Assembly: GCF_000520955.1 (NCBI RefSeq)
Contig: NZ_JACC01000042.1
Location: forward strand, 1-32,000
Direction of reading: 5' to 3'
Length of the DNA: 32,000 nt
Source of the DNA: Aquimarina pacifica
GTDB lineage: Bacteria > Bacteroidota > Bacteroidia > Flavobacteriales > Flavobacteriaceae
Both the position numbers and the translations under genes were made by a program. Below are positions 1-9,142 of this stretch, one piece after another. The notes under the pieces were generated by a model. That model saw nothing but the letters and a program-made list of their open reading frames with translations. It was not told the DNA's origin and made no database searches. Within the stretch, counting starts at the first letter, position 1. Every line of letters begins with the position of its first letter.

Positions 1-35
1 GTAAAGGATGTTTGTTTAACGTACCTAATGTTGGG

Positions 36-236
36 TAACGTTCTGTGTATGAAACGTAGCGTGCAAAATTGGCACTAACTTTTCGGGTTAACACAGAGCC
101 GAATTTTTATATTTTGTTTTAATTTTTCTCTTTTTAAAAGCCAAATTAAAAATTTGGCGGACTTTGTAAATAAACACCAAACTTTTGGTTTAGTACTTAT
201 TTAGCTATGTTTTCATACACTTTGTTAGCGGTAGTT
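36..236 (-). repeat. ~200-bp structured cassette-boundary repeat, copy 1
   Basis: Aligns by eye with 1059-1257 at roughly 85-90% identity with a few indels. Imperfect terminal inverted repeats: GTGTATGAAACGTAGC (45-60) versus GCTATGTTTTCATACAC (204-220). Central hairpin GCCAAATT-AAA-AATTTGGC (140-158). Internal direct repeats AACTTTTCGGGTTAACAC (77-94) and AAACTTTTGGTTTAGTAC (179-196). Overlaps the last ~13 codons of ORF 197-700. Confidence 0.85.
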
Positions 237-700
237 ATTTTCTTTTTTAACTGTTCAAAGCCTCCCCAATTAGAGCCACAATCTCTTTTGGTTACATCTA
301 AAAAATAGTTATTAGTTTCAACACTCCAAGATTTAGAATTACGACAAGAACTGCGAGCTTTAAAACTATCAGAAAACATAATTTGGAAAAAATGCATTAT
401 ATCAGATTGATTTTTTATTGATAATTCTGTTGTCCATTCCTCAATAACACGTCTTTTAAATAAGCTTGGATCTGGACAATTTACAGTGTCTTTTTGAAAG
501 TTTAGCATTAATTTTTCATTAGTCTTATAAATCTTCATGATTTCAAAGTGTCCGCCCCATTCTCCACAATCGGTATGTCTAGATTTGATTGTAATTGTAT
601 CTTCAATTGTCATGTCTAGGAATAAATCATTATTAAAATTTGATTTATTGCAGCTACATAAAATTAATACCAGCAATATTAAAAATTTGGTTTTAATCAT
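197..700 (-). CDS. hypothetical lipoprotein (cassette gene), with duplicated D-C-G-x-W-G-G motif
   Basis: 167-aa ORF. N-terminus MIKTKFLILLVLILCSC is a signal peptide plus lipobox Cys. Two internal copies of DCGEWGGHFE / DCGSNWGGFEQ. Start overlaps the stop of the upstream ORF by 4 nt (ATGA). No family recognised. Confidence 0.6.
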   Translation of the reverse strand: MIKTKFLILLVLILCSCNKSNFNNDLFLDMTIEDTITIKSRHTDCGEWGGHFEIMKIYKTNEKLMLNFQKDTVNCPDPSLFKRRVIEEWTTELSIKNQSDIMHFFQIMFSDSFKARSSCRNSKSWSVETNNYFLDVTKRDCGSNWGGFEQLKKKITTANKVYENIAK

Positions 701-1032
701 CGCTTAACCATAAATGAATTAAAAGATTTAATTGAGCTCATTTGTTGTCTCCAAAATAGGATAGGTATAAGACCACTTAAAGTTCCAATTGCGCCATAAA
801 AATATAGTAATGTAATTGTTGCAACTACGCCTAATCCAATACCGAAATATATTATCTTATTATTGACTTCAGCTTTTACATCATTCACGTGTTTCTTTTC
901 TATACTGCCGCAACTAAGACAATTTACTTTAAATTCTCTACCTTTTTCCATTTGTAAATCGTGCCTTGTATCAGCTTGAGATTTTATTTTTATGTCTTTT
1001 TTACAAGATTTACAATATGTATATAGATTCAT
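697..1032 (-). CDS. hypothetical zinc-ribbon membrane protein (cassette gene)
   Basis: 111-aa ORF. CKSC...(26 aa)...CLSC four-Cys pattern, followed by a hydrophobic segment IIYFGIGLGVVATITLLYFYGAIGTLSGLIPILFW. Translationally coupled (ATGA) to ORF 197-700. Confidence 0.55.
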   Translation of the reverse strand: MNLYTYCKSCKKDIKIKSQADTRHDLQMEKGREFKVNCLSCGSIEKKHVNDVKAEVNNKIIYFGIGLGVVATITLLYFYGAIGTLSGLIPILFWRQQMSSIKSFNSFMVKR

Positions 1033-1058
1033 TTTCTATTTTTTTTAGACATTACCGC

Positions 1059-1257
1059 TAACGGACTTGTGTATGAAACGTAGCGTGCAAAAAGACACTA
1101 ACTTTTCGGATAAACACAGAGCCGAATTTTTATATTTTGTTTTTAATTTTCTCTATTTAAAAGCCAAATTAAAAATTTGGCGGACTTTCTAAATATATAC
1201 AAACCTTTCGGTTAAGCACTTATTAGCTATGTTTTATACACCGTGTTGGCAGTAGTT
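1059..1257 (-). repeat. ~200-bp structured cassette-boundary repeat, copy 2
   Basis: Same architecture as copy 1. TIRs at 1069-1084 and 1226-1241. Hairpin at 1163-1181. Internal direct repeats at about 1096-1117 and 1198-1219. The left edge TTACCGCTAACGG is the reverse complement of the right edge GTTAGCGGTA of copy 1. Begins immediately after the stop of ORF 1257-1946. Confidence 0.85.
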
Positions 1258-1946
1258 TATTCTTCTATTTCTCCAAATCTATTTTTTCCCAAATAGTGGA
1301 TAAAAATTCTATCAATATTTGGTGGAGGCTGACTTTCTCTAATTAATCTTACTCTGTGTTCCAGAGGTACAGCTTTTGTCCATCCCTCAGGCATTCCAGC
1401 TTGTCTTTCAAAATCTTCAATAGTTAATCCAGATTCTTTTAAGTTTTTCATTGTAAAAAATTGTTTAGAGTCTATGTGTTTACCAAATTTTTGAAAAACT
1501 TCATAAATCAAATTTAAAATATTCTTAAAGTGAATATCACAAGCTGTTACAACGTCTTCATCTGGAATATACTCGTTTGAGGTTGGAGCTAATCTTTGGA
1601 AATTAAATTTCATTTTATCATTACCTTTTTCGTCAGTATAGGATGAAGCTCCTCCAATAACATAAAATCCTACTTTTTGCGATTCGTTTCTTGTCACCAG
1701 AAAAAACCGAGCGAGTTTGTCTTTAGCTAATTCGGTTTGTTTATTTTCATACCATTCAGAAAACCCATCTAAGTCAGAAATTGAAGCTTGTAATGCAAAA
1801 GTTACACTTCTGCAGGCTGACAAGAATGCACTTAAATAAAATTGTGGCTCATCTAAATGATGATAGTTCTCCTCTTCTCTCAATTTTTCTAAGAAGAAAG
1901 CAGTTTCATTAACTTTATTTTCTACTATGCCAAAACTTCTTCCCAT
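1257..1946 (-). CDS. hypothetical protein (first cassette gene downstream of the recombinase remnant)
   Basis: 229-aa uninterrupted ORF with no signal peptide. No motif I can assign to a family. Confidence 0.6.
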   Translation of the reverse strand: MGRSFGIVENKVNETAFFLEKLREEENYHHLDEPQFYLSAFLSACRSVTFALQASISDLDGFSEWYENKQTELAKDKLARFFLVTRNESQKVGFYVIGGASSYTDEKGNDKMKFNFQRLAPTSNEYIPDEDVVTACDIHFKNILNLIYEVFQKFGKHIDSKQFFTMKNLKESGLTIEDFERQAGMPEGWTKAVPLEHRVRLIRESQPPPNIDRIFIHYLGKNRFGEIEE

Positions 1947-1967
1947 TTCTAATTACTGCCAACAATT

Positions 1968-1993
1968 AAATATGTGTACCGGTACACATATTT
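1968..1993. repeat. perfect 26-bp palindrome AAATATGTGTACC|GGTACACATATTT
   Basis: Read directly from the sequence. Lies between the recombinase pseudogene stop (1997) and the first cassette start (1946). Confidence 0.9.
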
Positions 1994-1996
1994 CCA

Positions 1997-2565
1997 TTAT
2001 ATTTTTCCCAAATCTAGTGGATTTCTAATTGATTTAAAATTATTTACTGCGACTTGAGTATATATTTCAGTTGTTTTTGTACTACGATGTCCTATAAAGA
2101 GATTGAATATATCTGATATCAGTACCATTTTCTAATAAATTGTAGCAAAAGAATGTTTTAACATATATGGATCCACCGATTGGTTGATTTTAGCTTTTTT
2201 AGTACCTTATTTAACTATTTTAGATACACTGGCAATACAATATTTTCTTTGATCTTCAATTGCTTCAAATAAGTATAATTTTGGTCTGTATACTTTATAA
2301 TATTTTCTAAGACTCTATAGAACAGAGCGGCTACGAATCGTATATCGATTCCTATTACCTTTAGCTTGTCTTATCTTGATCAGCATACTTTTACTGTCAA
2401 TATCCCAGATTATTAGATTTAATTGTTCACTTCTTCGAAGTCCAGTAGAACATAATAGACTAAGTAATACATTTATGCTTTAAGTTTTTGCTTAGATCAA
2501 TCATTTTTATAGCATCTTCTAAGTCTATTTGTTTTGTTATAAGGATTTCTTTATTTATGCGCAAA
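1997..2565 (-). pseudogene. tyrosine recombinase/integrase, C-terminal catalytic domain remnant (3 in-frame stops, at least 1 frameshift, N-terminus missing)
   Basis: Minus-strand translation reads RINKEILITKQIDLEDAIKMIDLSKNLKHKCIT*, then a frameshift. It continues SLLCSTGLRRSEQLNLIIWDIDSKSMLIKIRQAKGNRNRYTIRSRSVL*SLRKYYKVYRPKLYLFEAIEDQRKYCIASVSKIVK*GTKKAKINQSVDPYMLKHSFATIY*KMVLISDIFNLFIGHRSTKTTEIYTQV...LGKI*. This carries the GLRxSE, HxxR-like (LKHSFAT) and GHxxxxTTEIYT(Y) boxes of the phage-integrase family. The ORF track calls no ORF here. Confidence 0.8.
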
Positions 2566-2727: not shown

Positions 2728-3129
2728 CTAACACAAAAAATTCTTGGCAATTTTTTTTGGTGGTTGTATAATGGCTTGTTTACTGTGATGATACCAATAA
2801 AGGTCTGTATGAACAATCGCACATAATTGGTTTTCGATATTAAAAAACCGACTCTTTATTGCTAATTTTTTTGTATCCGAAGTAGGTGCAAAACATTCTA
2901 AATTCACAAAAAAGGATTGCGTAAACATCAAGTTTTTTTGATAAATAATTTCTTCTTTTACTCCTTGTAGACCAAGTTGTAAACGTTGCATTTTTTGTTT
3001 CGAAAGACCTTTAGAAAATAAAAAGTTTTCGAACGCACGAGAGGTATATGATAAATATGCAAAACGTTGCATTACCATAAAATCATTTACATCATCTCCT
3101 GTTACTTTATATGCTTTTCTGTATATCAT
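2728..3129 (-). CDS. hotdog-fold thioesterase-like protein (tentative)
   Basis: 133-aa ORF. Its size and the N-terminal pattern (YKVTGDDVNDFMVMQRFAYLSY) resemble 4HBT/acyl-ACP-thioesterase-like proteins. The family call is weak. Confidence 0.45.
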   Translation of the reverse strand: MIYRKAYKVTGDDVNDFMVMQRFAYLSYTSRAFENFLFSKGLSKQKMQRLQLGLQGVKEEIIYQKNLMFTQSFFVNLECFAPTSDTKKLAIKSRFFNIENQLCAIVHTDLYWYHHSKQAIIQPPKKIAKNFLC

Positions 3130-3147
3130 TTGGGGTATAATTATGGG

Positions 3148-4041
3148 TTATTTTTTAAGCTTTCCTTTTTTATGTTTTCCCATCTGAAATGTTCTTGAGA
3201 TATTAAATCCAAAATGAATATCTCCGCCAAAGAAATCACCAGTAGATTCGGTGATAAAACTTTTTTCTATCATTGTAATAGAGTTGGATAAAATCATCTG
3301 AAAAACATGTCCTCCGGTCTCTATGTCTACACCAAATGCAATAGAGTTTGTAGTTTCGAAAGAAGATAATTGGTCAAGGGTATAATAATATTCAGCATTT
3401 ATAGACACCCGATTACTAATTTTGATACGATTACCAATACCAACCGCCAAAATATCATGAGGATCATTGGTAAGAGCTACCGAGTTTCTATGGATATAAG
3501 TCGGAGATACTTGTAACGAAAAACCGGGACTAAATTTTCTGGCCATTAAAATTTGAGCTGTGTAAGACATCTTTTGACTTGCTGTAGGTTCATTAGCAGG
3601 GTCGAAGTCTTTTAGTGTTCTATAGGCTGCACTTCCAAACATAGAAACCGATACGGGTAACGAATTAGGTCCTGTGCTTTGTTTTAGTACTTTGTATTTA
3701 AAAAAACCATCATATGTTTTATCAAAACTGCTTCGACCCAAACCAAGCATAAGATCATTTGTTACTCCATACTCAAACGCAAAGCGAATATTTGATTGGT
3801 CCAAACCATAGAGTTCATCAATACCTGTATTTATTCTTCCGAAACGGTGGGAGATAAGAAATACCAATCCTTTTTTTGGACTATTCTCTATAGAATGCCC
3901 GTTTAATATCCGGGTTCCCTTAAAAGTAGCAATGGTTATTATTTTGGTTTCTGGAGATTCGTTTTCAAGAATATCAAAAAGATCTTGAGAAAATCCTTTA
4001 AGACCGATAGTCAAAAAAGTAAGAAAGATTAGTTTTTTCAT
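3148..4041 (-). CDS. predicted outer-membrane beta-barrel protein (DUF5777-like), paralog A
   Basis: 297 aa with a signal peptide MKKLIFLTFLTIGLKGFSQ. Alternating beta-strand pattern and a C-terminal aromatic-rich strand (IHFGFNISRTF). About 40% identical by eye to ORF 10987-11892. Confidence 0.7.
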   Translation of the reverse strand: MKKLIFLTFLTIGLKGFSQDLFDILENESPETKIITIATFKGTRILNGHSIENSPKKGLVFLISHRFGRINTGIDELYGLDQSNIRFAFEYGVTNDLMLGLGRSSFDKTYDGFFKYKVLKQSTGPNSLPVSVSMFGSAAYRTLKDFDPANEPTASQKMSYTAQILMARKFSPGFSLQVSPTYIHRNSVALTNDPHDILAVGIGNRIKISNRVSINAEYYYTLDQLSSFETTNSIAFGVDIETGGHVFQMILSNSITMIEKSFITESTGDFFGGDIHFGFNISRTFQMGKHKKGKLKK

Positions 4042-4046
4042 GATGT

Positions 4047-4589
4047 TTACTTATAAGGTTGGTGATCTAGAGTGAAATCTATTTTTACGACTTCTGCTAT
4101 ATTTTTAATTACGATAGAAGGAATCTTGATATTATATTCTTCGACTGCCACAGGAAAACTACCGATTAGGAGAATGTTAGAATCATTTTTTGTTATTTCA
4201 ACTTCGGTTTGAATCTTTTTCGAAACTCCATGGATAGTCAATAAACCTTCTACGGTCGCTGTTTGGGGTCCAGAGGTTATGGTAGAGAACTGAAGAATTT
4301 TTCCCTTAAAAAATGCTTTTGGATATTTGTCAGACTCCACGTAATTTTCATTAAAATGCTCTTGCATTAGTAATTTTTCGAACATAAATGATTTCATTAA
4401 TATCGATATAGCAATGTCTCCGGTTTCTGCATCAATAATACTCAGAACCTGATGGTTTTTTGCAGTAATATCCTCTAATGGTGAGTGAGAATAGAAGGAA
4501 GTGAATCCTTTTTTTGTTATAAATTTTTTCTGTGCCTGTGCAACGTTTATAAGAAGTAGGCTCATGAATAGAATATGTATTGATTTCAT
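4047..4589 (-). CDS. YceI-family periplasmic lipid/polyisoprenoid-binding protein, paralog A
   Basis: 180 aa with a signal peptide. The conserved block SFYSHSPLEDITAKNHQVLSIID...EHFNENYVESDKYPKAFFKG is typical of the YceI-like domain. About 55-60% identical by eye to ORF 10452-10997. Confidence 0.85.
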   Translation of the reverse strand: MKSIHILFMSLLLINVAQAQKKFITKKGFTSFYSHSPLEDITAKNHQVLSIIDAETGDIAISILMKSFMFEKLLMQEHFNENYVESDKYPKAFFKGKILQFSTITSGPQTATVEGLLTIHGVSKKIQTEVEITKNDSNILLIGSFPVAVEEYNIKIPSIVIKNIAEVVKIDFTLDHQPYK

Positions 4590-4764
4590 TACAAGATTTT
4601 TTGTTAGTATTTTATTGATGATTTGAGGTTGTTTTAACTACGACCAATGCGAATAAAAAACAAAGGATTTACATAATCTGTGAAAACAGAATTTGGCTAA
4701 AAAGGTAATGTCTTGTTTAATCAGGTATGAACGAATGATGCGCATTTTTTTCTTTTTTTTAGAA

Positions 4765-5190
4765 TTAGTTAATAAGAATACATTGTATAAGAATTACATC
4801 CATGAGGTAACCTGTACAGACTCCCTTTATGGTGACATCTTGATCTTTCTTTAGAGAAGTGATTTTTTGTTTTTCTTCGGGCGAAATATGACAAATAACA
4901 TTCCCTGAAAACGAATTATCACTTAGCAGTACGATAGCTTTACCATTTACAGTATCTAACTCAGATATTTTACCAGAAACCTCTATGATTTGGTCTAAAT
5001 ATTTTGAGTTAGCCGTATTTTCATCAGTGCTATACTCGTTTAATAGTGTACTTGAACTAGTTACTATATTTGGTGTGATACTAGCAATATTTGCCGTCTT
5101 AGTATTGTATATATTGTTTGCAATAAGTACACCACCCGTAATAGTGAACAGTATCCATACCATCAAAAGCATTCTTTTAGTATTTATCAT
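4765..5190 (-). CDS. membrane-anchored OB-fold protein (tRNA_anti-like family), paralog A
   Basis: 141 aa with an N-terminal TM anchor. The core LLNEYSTDENTANSKYLDQIIEVSGKISEL...VICHISPEEKQKITSLKKDQDVTIKGVCTGYLMDVILIQCIL matches the pattern of the OB-fold putative-lipoprotein family. Paralog at 10028-10459. Confidence 0.7.
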   Translation of the reverse strand: MINTKRMLLMVWILFTITGGVLIANNIYNTKTANIASITPNIVTSSSTLLNEYSTDENTANSKYLDQIIEVSGKISELDTVNGKAIVLLSDNSFSGNVICHISPEEKQKITSLKKDQDVTIKGVCTGYLMDVILIQCILIN

Positions 5191-5215
5191 AGTATTATTT
5201 ATAAGTAGGTAAGAA

Positions 5216-5590
5216 TTAATTATCTAAGGCTCCACTATCAATCCAGCATTTTATTAATTCTATCTCATCATTGGTAAGAGATCCTCCTTGTGGCATTCTT
5301 CTACTAACTACTTGCCCGCGAATGTTTTGAGCATTAATACTTATATTCTCATATGTTCTTAAATCAGGAAATCTGCTACCCCCGTGACAACCAATACAAT
5401 TGGTGTCGATAATAGATTTGACGTCATCACTAAATGAGATCGTAGTATCACATACTTCGCTTTGCTCATCAGTATCAGGATCATTTTGTTCTGGAGTATC
5501 ATTTTGCTCATTGCCAGTTTCTTCTTCTACATTGTTTTCGCAGGCTAAAAAAGCAATGCTTGCAACTAAAATCAAGAGTGTTTTTTTCAT
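5216..5590 (-). CDS. c-type cytochrome-like lipoprotein with acidic linker
   Basis: CIGCH heme-binding motif and a downstream RRMPQGG (candidate axial Met). Start trimmed to MKKTLLILVASIAFLAC (signal peptide plus lipobox) at 5590. The track ORF extends to 5650 through a non-signal leader. Contains an Asp/Glu/Asn-rich linker. Confidence 0.7.
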   Translation of the reverse strand: MKKTLLILVASIAFLACENNVEEETGNEQNDTPEQNDPDTDEQSEVCDTTISFSDDVKSIIDTNCIGCHGGSRFPDLRTYENISINAQNIRGQVVSRRMPQGGSLTNDEIELIKCWIDSGALDN

Positions 5591-5780
5591 TTTCAAAGGA
5601 GTTTTTGGGTTTGTTTTTTTCGAACGTATCTGTTCTTGTTGTTGATGCAAAGTAACCGCGAATAGCGGGCTTACATCAAATTAAACTGTATGAAAGTGCG
5701 AAAATTAGGGTTGAAAGGGAAAAAATAGAACTGAACTAAACAGCATATTTTGGGGTATTTCTGATTTTTTGGCTGTCCCT

Positions 5781-6610
5781 TCATTACAAGGAGGAATGAC
5801 GAAGTAATCTTATTAATGAGAATAATTAAGATTATAGAGATTGCTGTACTACGTTCGCAATGACGCGTTATTGTCATTACGAGGAGGGACGACGAAGTAA
5901 TCTTATTAATGAGAATAATTAGATTATATAGATTACTTCACTACGTTCACAATGACGTGTTGTATTGTCATTACAAGGATTAACGACGAAGTAATCTTAT
6001 TAATGAGAATAATTAGATTATATAGATTACTTCACTACGTTCACAATGACGTGTTGTATTGTCATTACGAGGAGGAACGACGAAGTAATCTTATTAATTA
6101 GAGTAATTAGATTATATAGATTACTTCACTACGTTCGCAATGACGCGTTGTATGTCATTACGAGGAGGAACGACGAAGTAATCTTATTAATTAGAGTAAT
6201 TAGATTATATAGATTACTTCACTACGTTCGCAATGACGCGTTGTATGTCATTACGAGGAGGAACGACGAAGTAATCTTATTAATTAGAGTAATTAGATTA
6301 TATAGATTACTTCACTACGTTCGCAATGACGCGTTGTATGTCATTACGAGGAGGAACGACGAAGTAATCTTATTAATTAGAGTAATTAGATTATATAGAT
6401 TACTTCACTACGTTCGCAATGACGCGTTGTATGTCATTACGAGGAGGAACGACGAAGTAATCTTATTAATTAGAGTAATTAGATTATAGAGATTGCTTCA
6501 CTACGTTCGCAATGACGTGTTGTATGTCATTACGAGGAGGAACGACGAAGTAATCTTATTAATGAGAATAATTAGTTTATAGAGATTACTTTATTATGTT
6601 CACAATGGTG
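5781..6610. repeat. tandem hairpin-unit array, left block (9 units of 93-94 bp plus a degenerate left arm at 6584-6610)
   Basis: The TCATTAC(G/A)AGGAGG... motif recurs at 5781, 5874, 5968, 6062, 6155, 6248, 6341, 6434 and 6527. The units starting at 6062-6341 are identical. Confidence 0.95.
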
Positions 6611-6932: not shown

Positions 6933-7972
6933 TCATTACAAGGAGGAACGACGAAGTAATCTTACTAATGGGAATGCTATATTATACAGATTGCTGCACT
7001 ACGTTCGCAATGACGCGTTGTATGTCATTACGAGGAGGAACGACGAAGTAATCTTATTAATTAGAGTAATTAGATTATATAGATTGCTTCACTACGTTCG
7101 CAATGACGTGTTGTATTGTCATTACGAGGAGGAACGACGAAGTAATCTTACTAATGGGAATCTATATTATACAGATTGCTTCACTACGTTCGCAATGACG
7201 TGTTATTGTCATTACGAGGAGGGACGACGAAGTAATCTTACTAATGGGAATCTATATTATACAGATTGCTTCACTACGTTCGCAATGACGTGTTGTATGT
7301 CATTACAAGGAGTAACGACGAAGTAATCTTATTAATGAGAATAATTAGATTATATAGATTGCTACACTACGTTCGCAATGACGTGTTGTATGTCATTACG
7401 AGGAGGAACGACGAAGTAATCTTATTAATTAGAGTAATTAGATTATATAGATTGCTTCACTACGTTCGCAATGACGTGTTGTATTGTCATTACGAGGAGG
7501 AACGACGAAGTAATCTTACTAATGGGAATCTATATTATACAGATTGCTTCACTACGTTCGCAATGACGTGTTATTGTCATTACGAGGAGGGACGACGAAG
7601 TAATCTTACTAATGGGAATCTATATTATACAGATTGCTTCACTACGTTCGCAATGACGTGTTGTATGTCATTACAAGGAGTAACGACGAAGTAATCTTAT
7701 TAATGAGAATAATTAGATTATATAGATTGCTACACTACGTTCGCAATGACGTGTTGTATGTCATTACGAGGAGGAACGACGAAGTAATCTTATTGATGAG
7801 AATAATTAGATTATAGAGATTGCTTCACTATGTTCGCAATGACGCATTATTGTCATTACGAGGAGGGACGACGAAGTAATCTTACTAATGAGAATGCTAT
7901 ATTATATAGATTGCTTCACTACGTTCGCAATGACGTGTTATTGTCATTACGAGGAGGAACGACGAAGTAATC
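6933..7972. repeat. tandem hairpin-unit array, right block (12 units of 90-94 bp, including ~2.2 copies of a 368-bp higher-order repeat)
   Basis: The TCATTAC motif recurs at 6933, 7025, 7119, 7209, 7300, 7393, 7487, 7577, 7668, 7761, 7853 and 7944. Pairs 7025/7393, 7119/7487, 7209/7577, 7300/7668 and 7393/7761 are each exactly 368 bp apart. Confidence 0.95.
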
Positions 7973-8020
7973 TTTTAAAAATAGAAAGAAATTGTTCAAA
8001 TGGTAATGAGATAGGTAACA

Positions 8021-9142
8021 TTACATATTTAACCATTGTTTGAACTCAGAAGCCTTATTTTTGCTAATAATGATTTCTACCGAAGAATCAGGTCGTACTA
8101 ATATCTTAAGCTGACTATTACCATATTTTATAATTTTTTCTATTGCCGCAATGCTAATTATAAATTGTCTATTTGCTCTAAAAAATATAGTAGTATCTAG
8201 GTTTGTATAAATATCATCAAGGCTATTATTACTAGTAGACTTTTTACCATCCTTAGATATAACATAAGTGATCGTGTTTTCTGTATAGATATAGGCAATC
8301 TCTGAAATTGCAATAGGAATTAATTCGTGTCTAATATAAGTAAGGATTCTTTTTTTACCAGAATCAGATAGGGACTCAGGTACATCCTCTTGAGTATCAA
8401 TTTCTGAGACCACTTTTTGTTGGTATGCAACAAGGTCTGTGTTAAGCTTCGATAAACTTATAACTTCGGTCTCTAAGTTTGTGTTTTTAAGTTCTAGTTG
8501 TTTTTCATAATTACTACCAATTAATCGAACAGCCAAAAATGAAGATAAAATGATAAGAACTCCCATTATAATAAATATATAGTAGAAGTTTCTTCGCAGT
8601 TTTTTCATCTGATCAGACATTTTTCCTACATTAATATGAGCCGCAACGATCCAATCAGAATTTTTTACAGGAGCTATATGTATGATTTCTGATGCTATCT
8701 CGAATGAATCAATACTTTGGGAACTATTAGATTTTTTTCTATTAATAAGAATTTCATATAATTCATCAGAGTTGATTTCTTGATTGGCAGAAGATAGAAG
8801 TAACTTATTCGAACTTACTTTTAGTCCTACTTTTGTAATATCAGGGTGACAGATTTCTTTTCCTGACCAGTCAAATAAACAAATGAAGCCAGTTTCGGTA
8901 TTAGAATTTTCTATTGTTTTTTGAACATCAGAAATGACTTTAGTTTTATCAATTCCTCCCTCAAGAAGAAACCCAATTAAATTAGCCATCTCGTTGGCTT
9001 CTCGTTTACTGGATTCTATTTGTACTTCGATTTGCTGGTTGGCACTTACTCTAATAAAATAGTGAACACTTAGAGAAGCTATAATCAAAAAAATAATTGA
9101 TATAGAGATAAAAGTCAGAAAATATAATTTGTCTTTTTTCAT
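8021..9142 (-). CDS. membrane-bound one-component regulator: TM, Cache-like sensor, TM, coiled coil, LytTR DNA-binding domain
   Basis: 373 aa with two hydrophobic segments (residues ~8-30 and ~185-207). The extracytoplasmic block GFICLFDWSGKEICHPD resembles Cache-domain signatures. The C-terminal ~100 aa (ILTYIRHELIPIAISEIAYIYTENTITYV...FFRANRQFIISIAAIEKI) match the LytTR pattern. No receiver domain. Confidence 0.8.
   Translation of the reverse strand: MKKDKLYFLTFISISIIFLIIASLSVHYFIRVSANQQIEVQIESSKREANEMANLIGFLLEGGIDKTKVISDVQKTIENSNTETGFICLFDWSGKEICHPDITKVGLKVSSNKLLLSSANQEINSDELYEILINRKKSNSSQSIDSFEIASEIIHIAPVKNSDWIVAAHINVGKMSDQMKKLRRNFYYIFIIMGVLIILSSFLAVRLIGSNYEKQLELKNTNLETEVISLSKLNTDLVAYQQKVVSEIDTQEDVPESLSDSGKKRILTYIRHELIPIAISEIAYIYTENTITYVISKDGKKSTSNNSLDDIYTNLDTTIFFRANRQFIISIAAIEKIIKYGNSQLKILVRPDSSVEIIISKNKASEFKQWLNM

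Follow-up and report, generated by a model that had tools for sequence, protein, structure and literature searches.

The first 2473 nucleotides of a 32,000-nucleotide stretch of the Aquimarina pacifica genome (contig NZ_JACC01000042.1, positions 1 to 32,000; hereafter the window) are best read as the decayed head of a chromosomal cassette array. The array is integron-like and belongs to a family of platforms related to the recombinase-associated acquired interbacterial defense (rAID-1) clusters; we put the probability of this reading at about 0.8. It is carried by the anatomy of the sites between the cassettes, a complementarity rule at the cassette boundaries, covariation within the sites, exact natural breakpoints, the association of the arrays with a recombinase gene and an attI-like site, and cassettes that are compact and hyperdiverse.

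An intact platform is headed by a Xer-like tyrosine recombinase of about 375 aa with an extra N-terminal domain of about 100 aa, in one subgroup beside a divergent zinc-ribbon gene of about 125 aa. An attI-like site just 3′ of the stop codon of the recombinase gene is followed by co-oriented, compact, mostly single-gene cassettes. Each cassette ends in an element of about 190-210 nt, made up of N7-AAC(A), an L″ arm, a conserved core, an L′ arm and (C)GTT. The 7 nt past the GTT form part of the next cassette, so that the first 10 nt of a cassette (GTT+N7) are the reverse complement of the N7+AAC preceding its own element. In a circular cassette the element would close into a long hairpin in which a stem from the R box, an internal loop with unequal sides and a stem from the L box come together, as they do in the attC of an integron. 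The recombinase would cut adjacent to the TT of (C)GTT; excision would be recombination between two elements, and insertion would take place at the GTT of attI.

The locus in A. pacifica

A first-pass annotation, made from the sequence alone, had noted two repeats of about 200 nt in this region. They are real: in an nhmmer search with a 52-member family profile they map to the minus strand, one at 27-236 and the other at 1050-1257. The two copies (elements A and B) share 87% column identity in an alignment of window 1-260 with 1020-1285. No further credible element was found with this profile in the other 30.7 kb of the window. Both copies have the terminal inverted repeats, central GC-clamped hairpin and internal direct repeats that had been ascribed to them. 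In element A, GTGTATGAAACGTAGC (45-60) pairs with GCTATGTTTTCATACAC (204-220). The central hairpin, GCCAAATT-AAA-AATTTGGC, lies at 140-158 and 1163-1181, and two AACYTTTYGG motifs were confirmed inside each copy. On the minus strand a T-run follows the hairpin in each copy; the hairpin at 1181-1163 has a terminator-like score and is followed by TTTTAAA.

Short boxes flank the elements, in a more regular pattern than had been described. Read on the coding strand, the order is GTTGGCAG (1962->1955), an open reading frame (ORF) of 229 aa, CTGCCAAC, element B, GTTAGCGG, ORFs of 111 and 167 aa, CCGCTAAC, element A, GTTACCCAAC and the window edge. Every gene block is bracketed by its own inverted repeat of 9-10 nt ending in GTT and AAC, and the two flanks of a single element do not match each other. 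Both elements are of the type 1 sequence subtype. The coding-strand limits of element A (37-226, minus strand) are AAC(A) at 226-224 and (C)GTT at 39-37; its L″ arm occupies 220-204 and its L′ arm 60-44. Element B (1060-1247, minus strand) has AAC(A) at 1247-1245 and ends with (C)GTT at 1062-1060.

Cassette 1 (718 nt; 1245-1962, minus strand) is bounded by GTTGGCAGTA (1962->1953) and ACTGCCAAC (1253->1245), which are complementary at 9 of 10 positions. It carries the 229-aa ORF (1257-1946, minus strand), which belongs to the phage lambda Ea47 family (PF26900) and whose product is 100% identical to an A. pacifica hypothetical protein (P0121). Cassette 2 (839 nt; 224-1062, minus strand) is bounded by GTTAGCGGTA (1062->1053) and TACCGCTAAC (233->224), complementary at all 10 nt. 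Its two minus-strand ORFs are translationally coupled through an ATGA overlap at 697-700: the first (111 aa, 697-1032) encodes a zinc-ribbon-like protein with a hydrophobic C-terminal segment, and the second (167 aa, 197-700) a protein with a lipoprotein-like N-terminus. The stop codon of the second (197-199) falls within element A. The array had been expected to continue leftward, and the window does end 39 nt into a third cassette (1-39, minus strand). This starts with (C)GTT|ACCCAACATT at 39->27, in agreement with the consensus GTT-R-N5-M-A-T-T derived from 113 exact cassettes (see below); the rest lies beyond the left window edge. Searches of the three window cassette proteins against Pfam, NCBIfam and PADLOC gave no family match for the two proteins of cassette 2 and no defence or immunity match for any of the three, and they lend no support to the earlier suggestion that these are immunity or defence candidates.

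Directly upstream of cassette 1, in the same orientation, lies the tyrosine recombinase remnant that had been reported there. It is a pseudogene (1997-2473, minus strand) in which the C-terminal part of about 158 codons is left, interrupted by three in-frame stops and two frameshifts, and from which the N-terminal part of about 215 codons is missing. The translation reads GLRRSE ... AKG ... HSFAT ... GHRSTKTTEIYTQV. The catalytic motif HxLRHSF has become YMLKHSF, with both His and Arg changed (HxxR to YxxK). The remnant is 56% identical to the intact recombinase of one related locus, L028 (L numbers denote loci retrieved in this work), and the divergent zinc-ribbon partner gene of the platform is absent from the window. 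The attI-like site (1960-1996, minus strand) begins 4 nt past the recombinase stop codon and consists of a 22-nt perfect palindrome, ATATGTGTACCGGTACACATAT (1969-1990), followed by TTAATT and the putative crossover GTT (1962-1960). The array is unable to act in cis, and "decayed or sedentary", as it had been called, is an apt description of this copy. Its two cassettes and the start of the third are immobile unless the genome encodes, at another place, a paralogue that acts in trans.

A tRNA scan of the window found none, hence no tRNA-linked att context, and Rfam gave no real match to the window or the element at gathering and E-value thresholds. The GC content is 30.5% in the array and 32.8% in the rest of the window, a weak skew.

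The element family in other genomes

The family was sampled through exact matches to a 22-mer of the element in species-representative genomes. The matches listed include at least 119 stretches, which represent at least 24 named genera of Flavobacteriaceae; 36 of these stretches come from Aquimarina, 15 from Tenacibaculum, 11 from Cellulophaga, 6 from Winogradskyella and 5 from Maribacter, with fewer each from Zobellia, Polaribacter, Kordia and others. Single contigs of metagenome-assembled genomes (MAGs) from Saprospiraceae and Cytophagales also carry the element, and a 27-mer matched 33 metagenome contigs, many of them labelled marine or TARA. Many of the matches are terminal on short contigs, a position to be expected of a repeat at which assemblies break.

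In the 119 listed loci and the window together, nhmmer detected 378 elements. Their orientation is uniform in 82 of 84 multi-copy loci, the median gap between elements is 832 bp, and up to 10 copies occur per 8 kb. Blocks on the same contig (L028 with L037, and L081 with L068) imply arrays of at least 23 kb. The conserved core of the element is 85-90% identical across genera. The elements are located only in arrays, directly 3′ of ORFs (113 exact cassettes). Whether the unit abuts the ends of unrelated ORFs had been proposed as a check on the array interpretation, and in other genomes it does, in co-oriented arrays directly after ORFs unrelated to one another.

No match to the element family was found in phage collections. 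Plasmid collections gave only two weak plasmid or chromid matches, both from Cytophagales, and no sign of an analogue of mobile integrons. These matches, L128:10943-14496 (Flammeovirga kamogawensis p1) and L127:11978-12152 (a Persicobacter plasmid), are related, partly degenerate elements, with no recombinase within the 11-12-kb flanks read. As they lie on large plasmids or chromids of Cytophagales, the family reaches beyond Flavobacteriaceae. A full type 1 element with 85% identity was also seen on L062, a 796-bp contig in a MAG labelled Chloroflexota; this label is most likely a binning error and not the real host. A look by eye for a Bacteroidetes-type promoter (-33 TTTG / -7 TAnnTTTG) in the element found none conserved across subtypes.

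Cassette boundaries and natural breakpoints

The boundary rule was tested by comparing GTT plus 7 nt at the 3′ end of each element with 7 nt plus AAC at the 5′ end of the next. Perfect 7/7 complementarity was found for 80 of 182 adjacent pairs (44%), and at least 6/7 for 62%. When the two ends of the same element were compared, the corresponding values were 0.4% and 7%, and for random pairs they were 0.5% and 4%. This complementarity is the signature of integron cassettes.

The median length of the 113 exact cassettes, those delimited by this rule, is 722 bp, and their consensus is GTT-R-N5-M-A-T-T ... A-rich-C-N6-Y-AAC. The longest ORF is co-oriented with the element in 106 of them and reversed in five, with a median coverage of 94%; it is preceded by a 23-nt 5′ leader, and its stop codon lies 14 nt ahead of the AAC. 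AACA and CGTT are invariant in 52 aligned elements for which both boundaries are known. By ORF reading, a 1.8-kb cassette at L028:3420-4891 holds two antisense genes, one nucleotidyltransferase-like and the other CDP-alcohol-phosphatidyltransferase-like.

Direct evidence that the cassette is the mobile unit comes from natural breakpoints. In Aquimarina longa SW024 one cassette is present on two scaffolds (L056 and L049) with approximately 99.9% identity and two mismatches. The nearly identical stretch takes in the ORF, R″ box and all of the element downstream; it starts exactly at CGTT|GTGCAACATT and ends exactly after ...AAGTCCGTT. The elements upstream of the two copies are of different types, only about 50% identical, and the downstream cassettes are unrelated. 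Junctions at one nucleotide position between different element types are not what homologous recombination between elements would yield. A GNAT acetyltransferase cassette shared by L076 (labelled Tenacibaculum) and L028 (labelled Aquimarina) is 99.8% identical, with the same breakpoints and unrelated flanks. Cassette-sized homologies with different neighbours also connect L091 with L110, L006 with L013, and L058 with L077.

Structure of the site

RNAalifold predicted a single long-range stem of 14 pairs joining the ends of the element, 11 of them with compensatory double changes; one pair, for example, occurs as GC in 23 sequences, as AU in 21 and as CG in 8. Counting the stem together with the AAC/GTT pairs, 97.2% of cells are paired, against 75.1% in shuffled alignments, a value that none of 500 shuffles reached. 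The covariation score is 0.518, against 0.127 in shuffles, and slid registers pair in only 18-39%. Single changes of the G-U type were absent from all 884 cells, which points to a constraint acting on DNA rather than on RNA.

The element length between the boxes is 183-210 nt. Single arrays (L029, L037, L072 and L102) hold at least four sequence subtypes side by side, each with matching arms of its own, so that one recombinase would have to accept sites by shape or by a few conserved bases. As it stands in the array, element A has a fold z-score of -3.8. When it was reconstituted with the start of its own cassette, the predicted fold contained a 10-bp R stem, a 3/5-nt asymmetric internal loop and an L stem, and the z-scores of the two strands were -5.1 and -5.7.

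Recombinases and array heads

A tblastn search with the window remnant found homologues upstream of the arrays, and co-oriented with them, in L028, L042, L050, L016, L113 and L097. The intact L028 recombinase has 373 aa, with Phage_integrase and SAM-like domains and an extra N-terminal domain of about 100 aa. No Pfam family scored above cut-off for this domain or for the zinc-ribbon partner protein. In seven family members the catalytic residues R, K, H, R, H and Y show no variation. The best NCBIfam match of L028 is NF040815, "site-specific tyrosine recombinase/integron integrase" (222 bits, cut-off 220); the IntI model TIGR02249 scores 175.8, below its cut-off of 265, and is split into two stretches. 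The nearest solved structures are those of archaeal XerA (4a8e and 5hxy), to which the alignment is contiguous from end to end. Opposite VchIntIA (2a3v), residues 271-297 of the query (27 aa) stand against IntI residues 175-243 (69 aa). Since the IntI-specific insertion is missing and the alignment with XerA is contiguous, the recombinase is not an IntI. At least 7986 database proteins match the family at E<1e-20, and many of these are named "integron integrase" by NCBI through NF040815. A phage or integrative conjugative element integrase next to a tRNA had been raised as a possible alternative origin of the window remnant; the recombinase is a simple tyrosine recombinase of Xer/IntI type, intact copies of which head arrays, and the window, in which the context was checked by a tRNA scan, has no tRNA.

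Starting from the protein, a recombinase, an attI-like site and an array obeying the boundary rule were found together in three of four genomes, those of Aquimarina sp. AD10 (L120), Winogradskyella ursingii (L130) and Aureibaculum luteum (L131). The fourth, Hanstruepera flava (L129), has an attI-like site and no recognisable elements. In 13 loci, the window (1960-1996) included, an attI-like site lies 40-110 nt past the recombinase stop; in it a short inverted repeat, such as GGATATAC...GTATATCC, is followed by a spacer of 2-6 nt and GTT-R-N6-AT(T).

In all five loci examined of the subgroup to which the window remnant belongs, a treble-clef zinc-ribbon gene of about 125 aa lies divergently and immediately upstream of the recombinase gene (L028:7611-7982, plus strand; L120:9552-9908; L129:7523-7912; L130:7532-7909; L131:7507-7902). 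Its product has the motif CLxCGxxLxGRxDKKYCxxxCKS ... FFTHYWKNxKGDVYLF.YEYGF, and could be an accessory factor or regulator of the platform.

Cassette content

Variation of cassette content between strains had been proposed as a check, and content is hyperdiverse across genomes: 155 ORFs fall into 153 families, in a survey that was restricted to ATG starts and imprecise cassette limits and that therefore undercounts ORFs. Cassettes also recur as discrete modules in different contexts. The 139 cassette proteins searched gave Pfam matches in 88 families, nearly all seen once. Among them are GNAT (3), glyoxalase/bleomycin resistance (2), HNH (2), Mrr (2), NADAR, SRA and an addiction-module antidote; further types are superoxide dismutase, an MmeI-type enzyme, HamA, NOV_C, DUF5677 and SUKH/SMI1_KNR4. 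Immunity-like signals were seen as SUKH/SMI1_KNR4 in L120 and, weakly, as Imm27 in L042; the majority of the 139 proteins gave none. The content resembles that of sedentary chromosomal integrons. Cassettes are not only small orphans. In W. ursingii one cassette (L130:10820-11545) encodes an Fe/Mn superoxide dismutase, and another (L130:14076-17128) an MmeI-type restriction-modification enzyme of more than 1000 aa.

Homologues of the Ea47-like gene of cassette 1 occur outside arrays and without an element, next to a methylase (L122), in a prophage-like region (L123) and, with 79% identity, in L124; their unrelated contexts fit the capture of genes from outside. The L124 homologue (1690-2440) lies in a higher-GC, non-array context, and the homology reaches about 20 nt 5′ of the ATG through ATTGTTAGTAAGTAGAA, which includes GTT. 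It could be a former cassette at a secondary site, or the ancestral gene.

Bacteroides-type arrays

A scan of viral contigs with the recombinase alignment yielded loci whose recombinases match, from about residue 17-46 onwards, a large part of the extra N-terminal domain. Arrays were found on three IMG/VR contigs filed as viral: L174:8940-12100, L171:1090-4200 and L169:9024-9618. The L174 recombinase is 76% identical to "recombinase [Bacteroides fragilis]" and 38% identical to that of L028 (E 3e-66), over a region that includes part of the N-terminal domain. The recombinase genes of these loci have a GC content of 42-56% and the downstream arrays 34-42%, the pattern described for rAID-1.

The intergenic sites in L174, L171 and L169 are only about 60 nt long, and the rule of TT+N7 and N7+AAC is kept. 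Perfect pairs tile the arrays, four in L174, three in L171 and one in L169, where chance would give approximately one scattered pair for each locus. TT is preceded by G at the attI-like site and by A at the elements (CATT), so that the first cassette starts with GTT and later ones with ATT; the difference between G and A indicates that exchange takes place between that base and TT. The exchange position in integrons is likewise between this base and TT. The predicted fold of reconstituted sites of this type combines an R stem of 9-10 bp with an asymmetric loop and an inner stem-loop; the z-scores range from -3.6 to -6.2.

Published accounts describe rAID-1 as a tyrosine recombinase of XerD type at the head end of co-oriented short orphan genes with conserved intergenic repeats (Ross et al., 10.1101/471110; 10.1101/2025.05.03.651265). 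In both, rAID-1 is confined to Bacteroidales, no mechanism is stated, and the likeness to integrons is given only as a resemblance (10.1101/471110; 10.1101/2025.05.03.651265). The [G/A]TT+N7 ... N7+AAC site detail is absent from these accounts. The arrays of L171, L174 and L169 would be rAID-1 in the published sense. The earlier description of the window as rAID-like is borne out to the extent that its recombinase family is 38% identical to a Bacteroides recombinase heading such putative rAID-1 arrays.

Neighbouring sequences in the window

Beyond the array, genes on the minus strand at 2728-5650 encode a 4HBT_2 thioesterase, a DUF5777 beta-barrel, YceI, a tRNA_anti-like protein and a protein with a weak cytochrome-c-like match; these look like ordinary chromosomal genes. 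Between the cytochrome-c-like ORF (5216-5650, minus strand) and an ORF at 8021-9142 (minus strand) lie two blocks of a 93-bp tandem repeat, at 5781-6607 (8.9 copies, 95% matches) and 6933-7974 (11.3 copies, 89% matches), which show additional periodicity of higher order at 275 and 368 bp. Clustered regularly interspaced short palindromic repeats (CRISPR) were considered and rejected, as the units are contiguous. Plus-strand ORFs inside the blocks are probably not genes.

Discussion

The observations on boundaries and breakpoints identify a cassette; how it moves follows less directly. The adjacent recombinase would carry out cutting, excision and insertion at attI, and its substrate would be a folded single strand. 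The latter is suggested indirectly by the fold z-scores and by arms that are variable yet complementary, a property needless to a protein that reads double-stranded DNA. The central hairpin and T-run may in addition terminate cassette transcripts.

Several points weigh against this picture. The window holds only two elements and a dead recombinase. Complementarity is below 6/7 in 38% of adjacent pairs, likely through undetected diverged elements or decay. The L076 and L028 assemblies come from one isolate-sequencing project, so that cross-contamination is possible for this pair. Covariation restricted to Watson-Crick pairs is also expected of a symmetric double-stranded binding site. The IntI-specific insertion binds extrahelical bases in integrons, and without it the recognition of hairpins would need another solution. 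Excision, circles and insertion, finally, are all steps that we infer.

Some of these points would sit as well with a platform of the same kind that recombines double-stranded DNA, in which L′-spacer-GTT would be an ordinary core-type site of the sort used by Xer and at pdif. The end-to-end alignment of the recombinase with XerA, the lack of the IntI insertion, the purely Watson-Crick covariation and an attI-like site with no R″ partner would all be natural on such a mechanism. It offers no reason, however, why the N7 arm should differ from cassette to cassette and yet complement the far end of the same cassette, as a stem would need, and it sits uneasily with several L-arm types beside one recombinase and with reconstituted sites that fold far better than shuffles. 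We regard it as unlikely, although it is the alternative to be taken most seriously.

Considerably less probable is the possibility that the elements are mainly transcriptional or RNA structures, combining terminator and leader or forming 3′ untranslated regions, and that cassettes are shuffled by homologous recombination between them. The GC-clamped hairpin with its T-run on the coding strand and a core conserved at 85-90% across genera are in keeping with this, and homology between elements could support such exchange. But the duplicated cassettes break exactly at CGTT despite upstream elements that are only about 50% identical, no G-U intermediates are seen, the rule holds in Bacteroides with unrelated sites of about 60 nt, and no Rfam family matches. 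A role as terminator could well be a second function of the element. Least probable of all, and in our view barely credible, is that the 200-nt unit is a selfish repeat, a miniature inverted-repeat transposable element (MITE) or a repetitive extragenic palindromic (REP) sequence, which sits between genes by chance. Terminal inverted repeats, the lack of coding capacity, many copies per genome and frequent location at contig ends are typical of such repeats. A scattered unit is not what is found, though: orientation is uniform in 82 of 84 loci, elements occur only in arrays after ORFs, and both copies in the 32-kb window lie within its array. Nor are there target-site duplications as direct flanks; it is the flanks of cassettes that are complementary, whereas those of elements are unrelated.

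As a cassette platform the system shares much with integrons such as the Vibrio cholerae superintegron with its VCRs. The cassette logic is the same, with a site split at [G]|TT and a cassette start complementary to its own R″ box. The core triplets are AAC and GTT; an R box, an asymmetric spacer and an L box are present, and structure is conserved rather than sequence. The cassettes are compact, apparently promoterless and hyperdiverse (GNAT, glyoxalase, toxin-antitoxin), and an attI is found next to the gene for the recombinase. An integrase oriented like its cassettes is itself known from "inverted integrase" integrons. The usual orientation is the opposite one (PMC4889954, there citing Boucher 2007). 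Unlike IntI, the flavobacterial recombinase has no domain inserted between patches II and III and has an extra N-terminal domain instead; its sites measure 183-210 nt with a conserved core, compared with about 57-141 bp for attC, and the distal R box is N6-7 rather than RYYY. The integron-like interpretation of the first-pass annotation thus stands for cassette logic, site architecture and the attI-like site, and falls for a classical integron, given the missing IntI insertion and sites of about 190-210 nt.

The pdif modules of Acinetobacter plasmids are likewise discrete gene modules bounded by short sites for Xer-type tyrosine recombinases. As generally described, they resemble the flavobacterial cassettes in being discrete modules at sites for a Xer-type recombinase. 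Their sites are 28-bp double-stranded XerC/XerD sites used by the host chromosomal Xer proteins, and to our knowledge pdif modules lack a recombinase of their own at the head of an array, a long structured element and complementary arms specific to each cassette.

The likeness to rAID-1 lies in a co-oriented recombinase at the head end (the pseudogene at 1997-2473 in the window), short genes (229, 111 and 167 aa here) with conserved repeats, homologous recombinases (38%), SUKH/SMI1_KNR4 or Imm-like proteins in some flavobacterial cassettes, and the TT+N7 / N7+AAC rule that the putative rAID-1 arrays share. In contrast to rAID-1 of gut Bacteroidales, the hosts are marine Flavobacteriaceae, with traces in Cytophagales. 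The element is about 200 nt long with a conserved core rather than about 60 nt, and carries CGTT rather than CATT; the recombinase identity (38%) falls short of the 50% by which rAID-1 is defined. The window shows a weak GC skew, and most flavobacterial cassettes give no immunity-family signal. The platform therefore lacks defining features both of an integron (IntI domain, site size) and of rAID-1 (more than 50% identity, a Bacteroidales host).

Bacteroidota have been counted among clades previously without integrons, on the basis of IntegronFinder 2.0.5 predictions (preprint 10.1101/2024.07.02.601686), and detection by IntegronFinder rests on the integron integrase and an attC covariance model (PMC4889954). 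Our full-text literature search, which covered few subscription journals, found no description of integron-like arrays in Flavobacteriaceae. We lean, with some reserve, towards the view that Bacteroidota possess a lineage of integron-type platforms of their own, comprising rAID-1 of Bacteroidales with sites of about 60 nt and the arrays of marine Flavobacteriaceae with sites of about 200 nt. Both would use Xer-like recombinases without the IntI domain, with the same [G/A]|TT crossover and the same logic of a hairpin site.

If so, integron-style recombination would be either much older than IntI or convergent. For rAID-1 this would supply a concrete and testable mechanism, in which crossover is adjacent to the TT of CGTT or CATT, the site is a hairpin and attI follows the stop of the recombinase gene. 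Surveys of integrons have a gap, in that the same cassette logic goes with a different recombinase and site in marine metagenomes and in the marine genera of Flavobacteriaceae, at least 24 in number. Short-read assemblies appear to break at the elements, the NCBI names of the recombinases are ambiguous, and an explicit model of the platform would improve the annotation of Flavobacteriaceae. A large marine cassette pool missed by tools based on IntI and attC models would become accessible, and its hyperdiverse, compact accessory genes would be opened to discovery.

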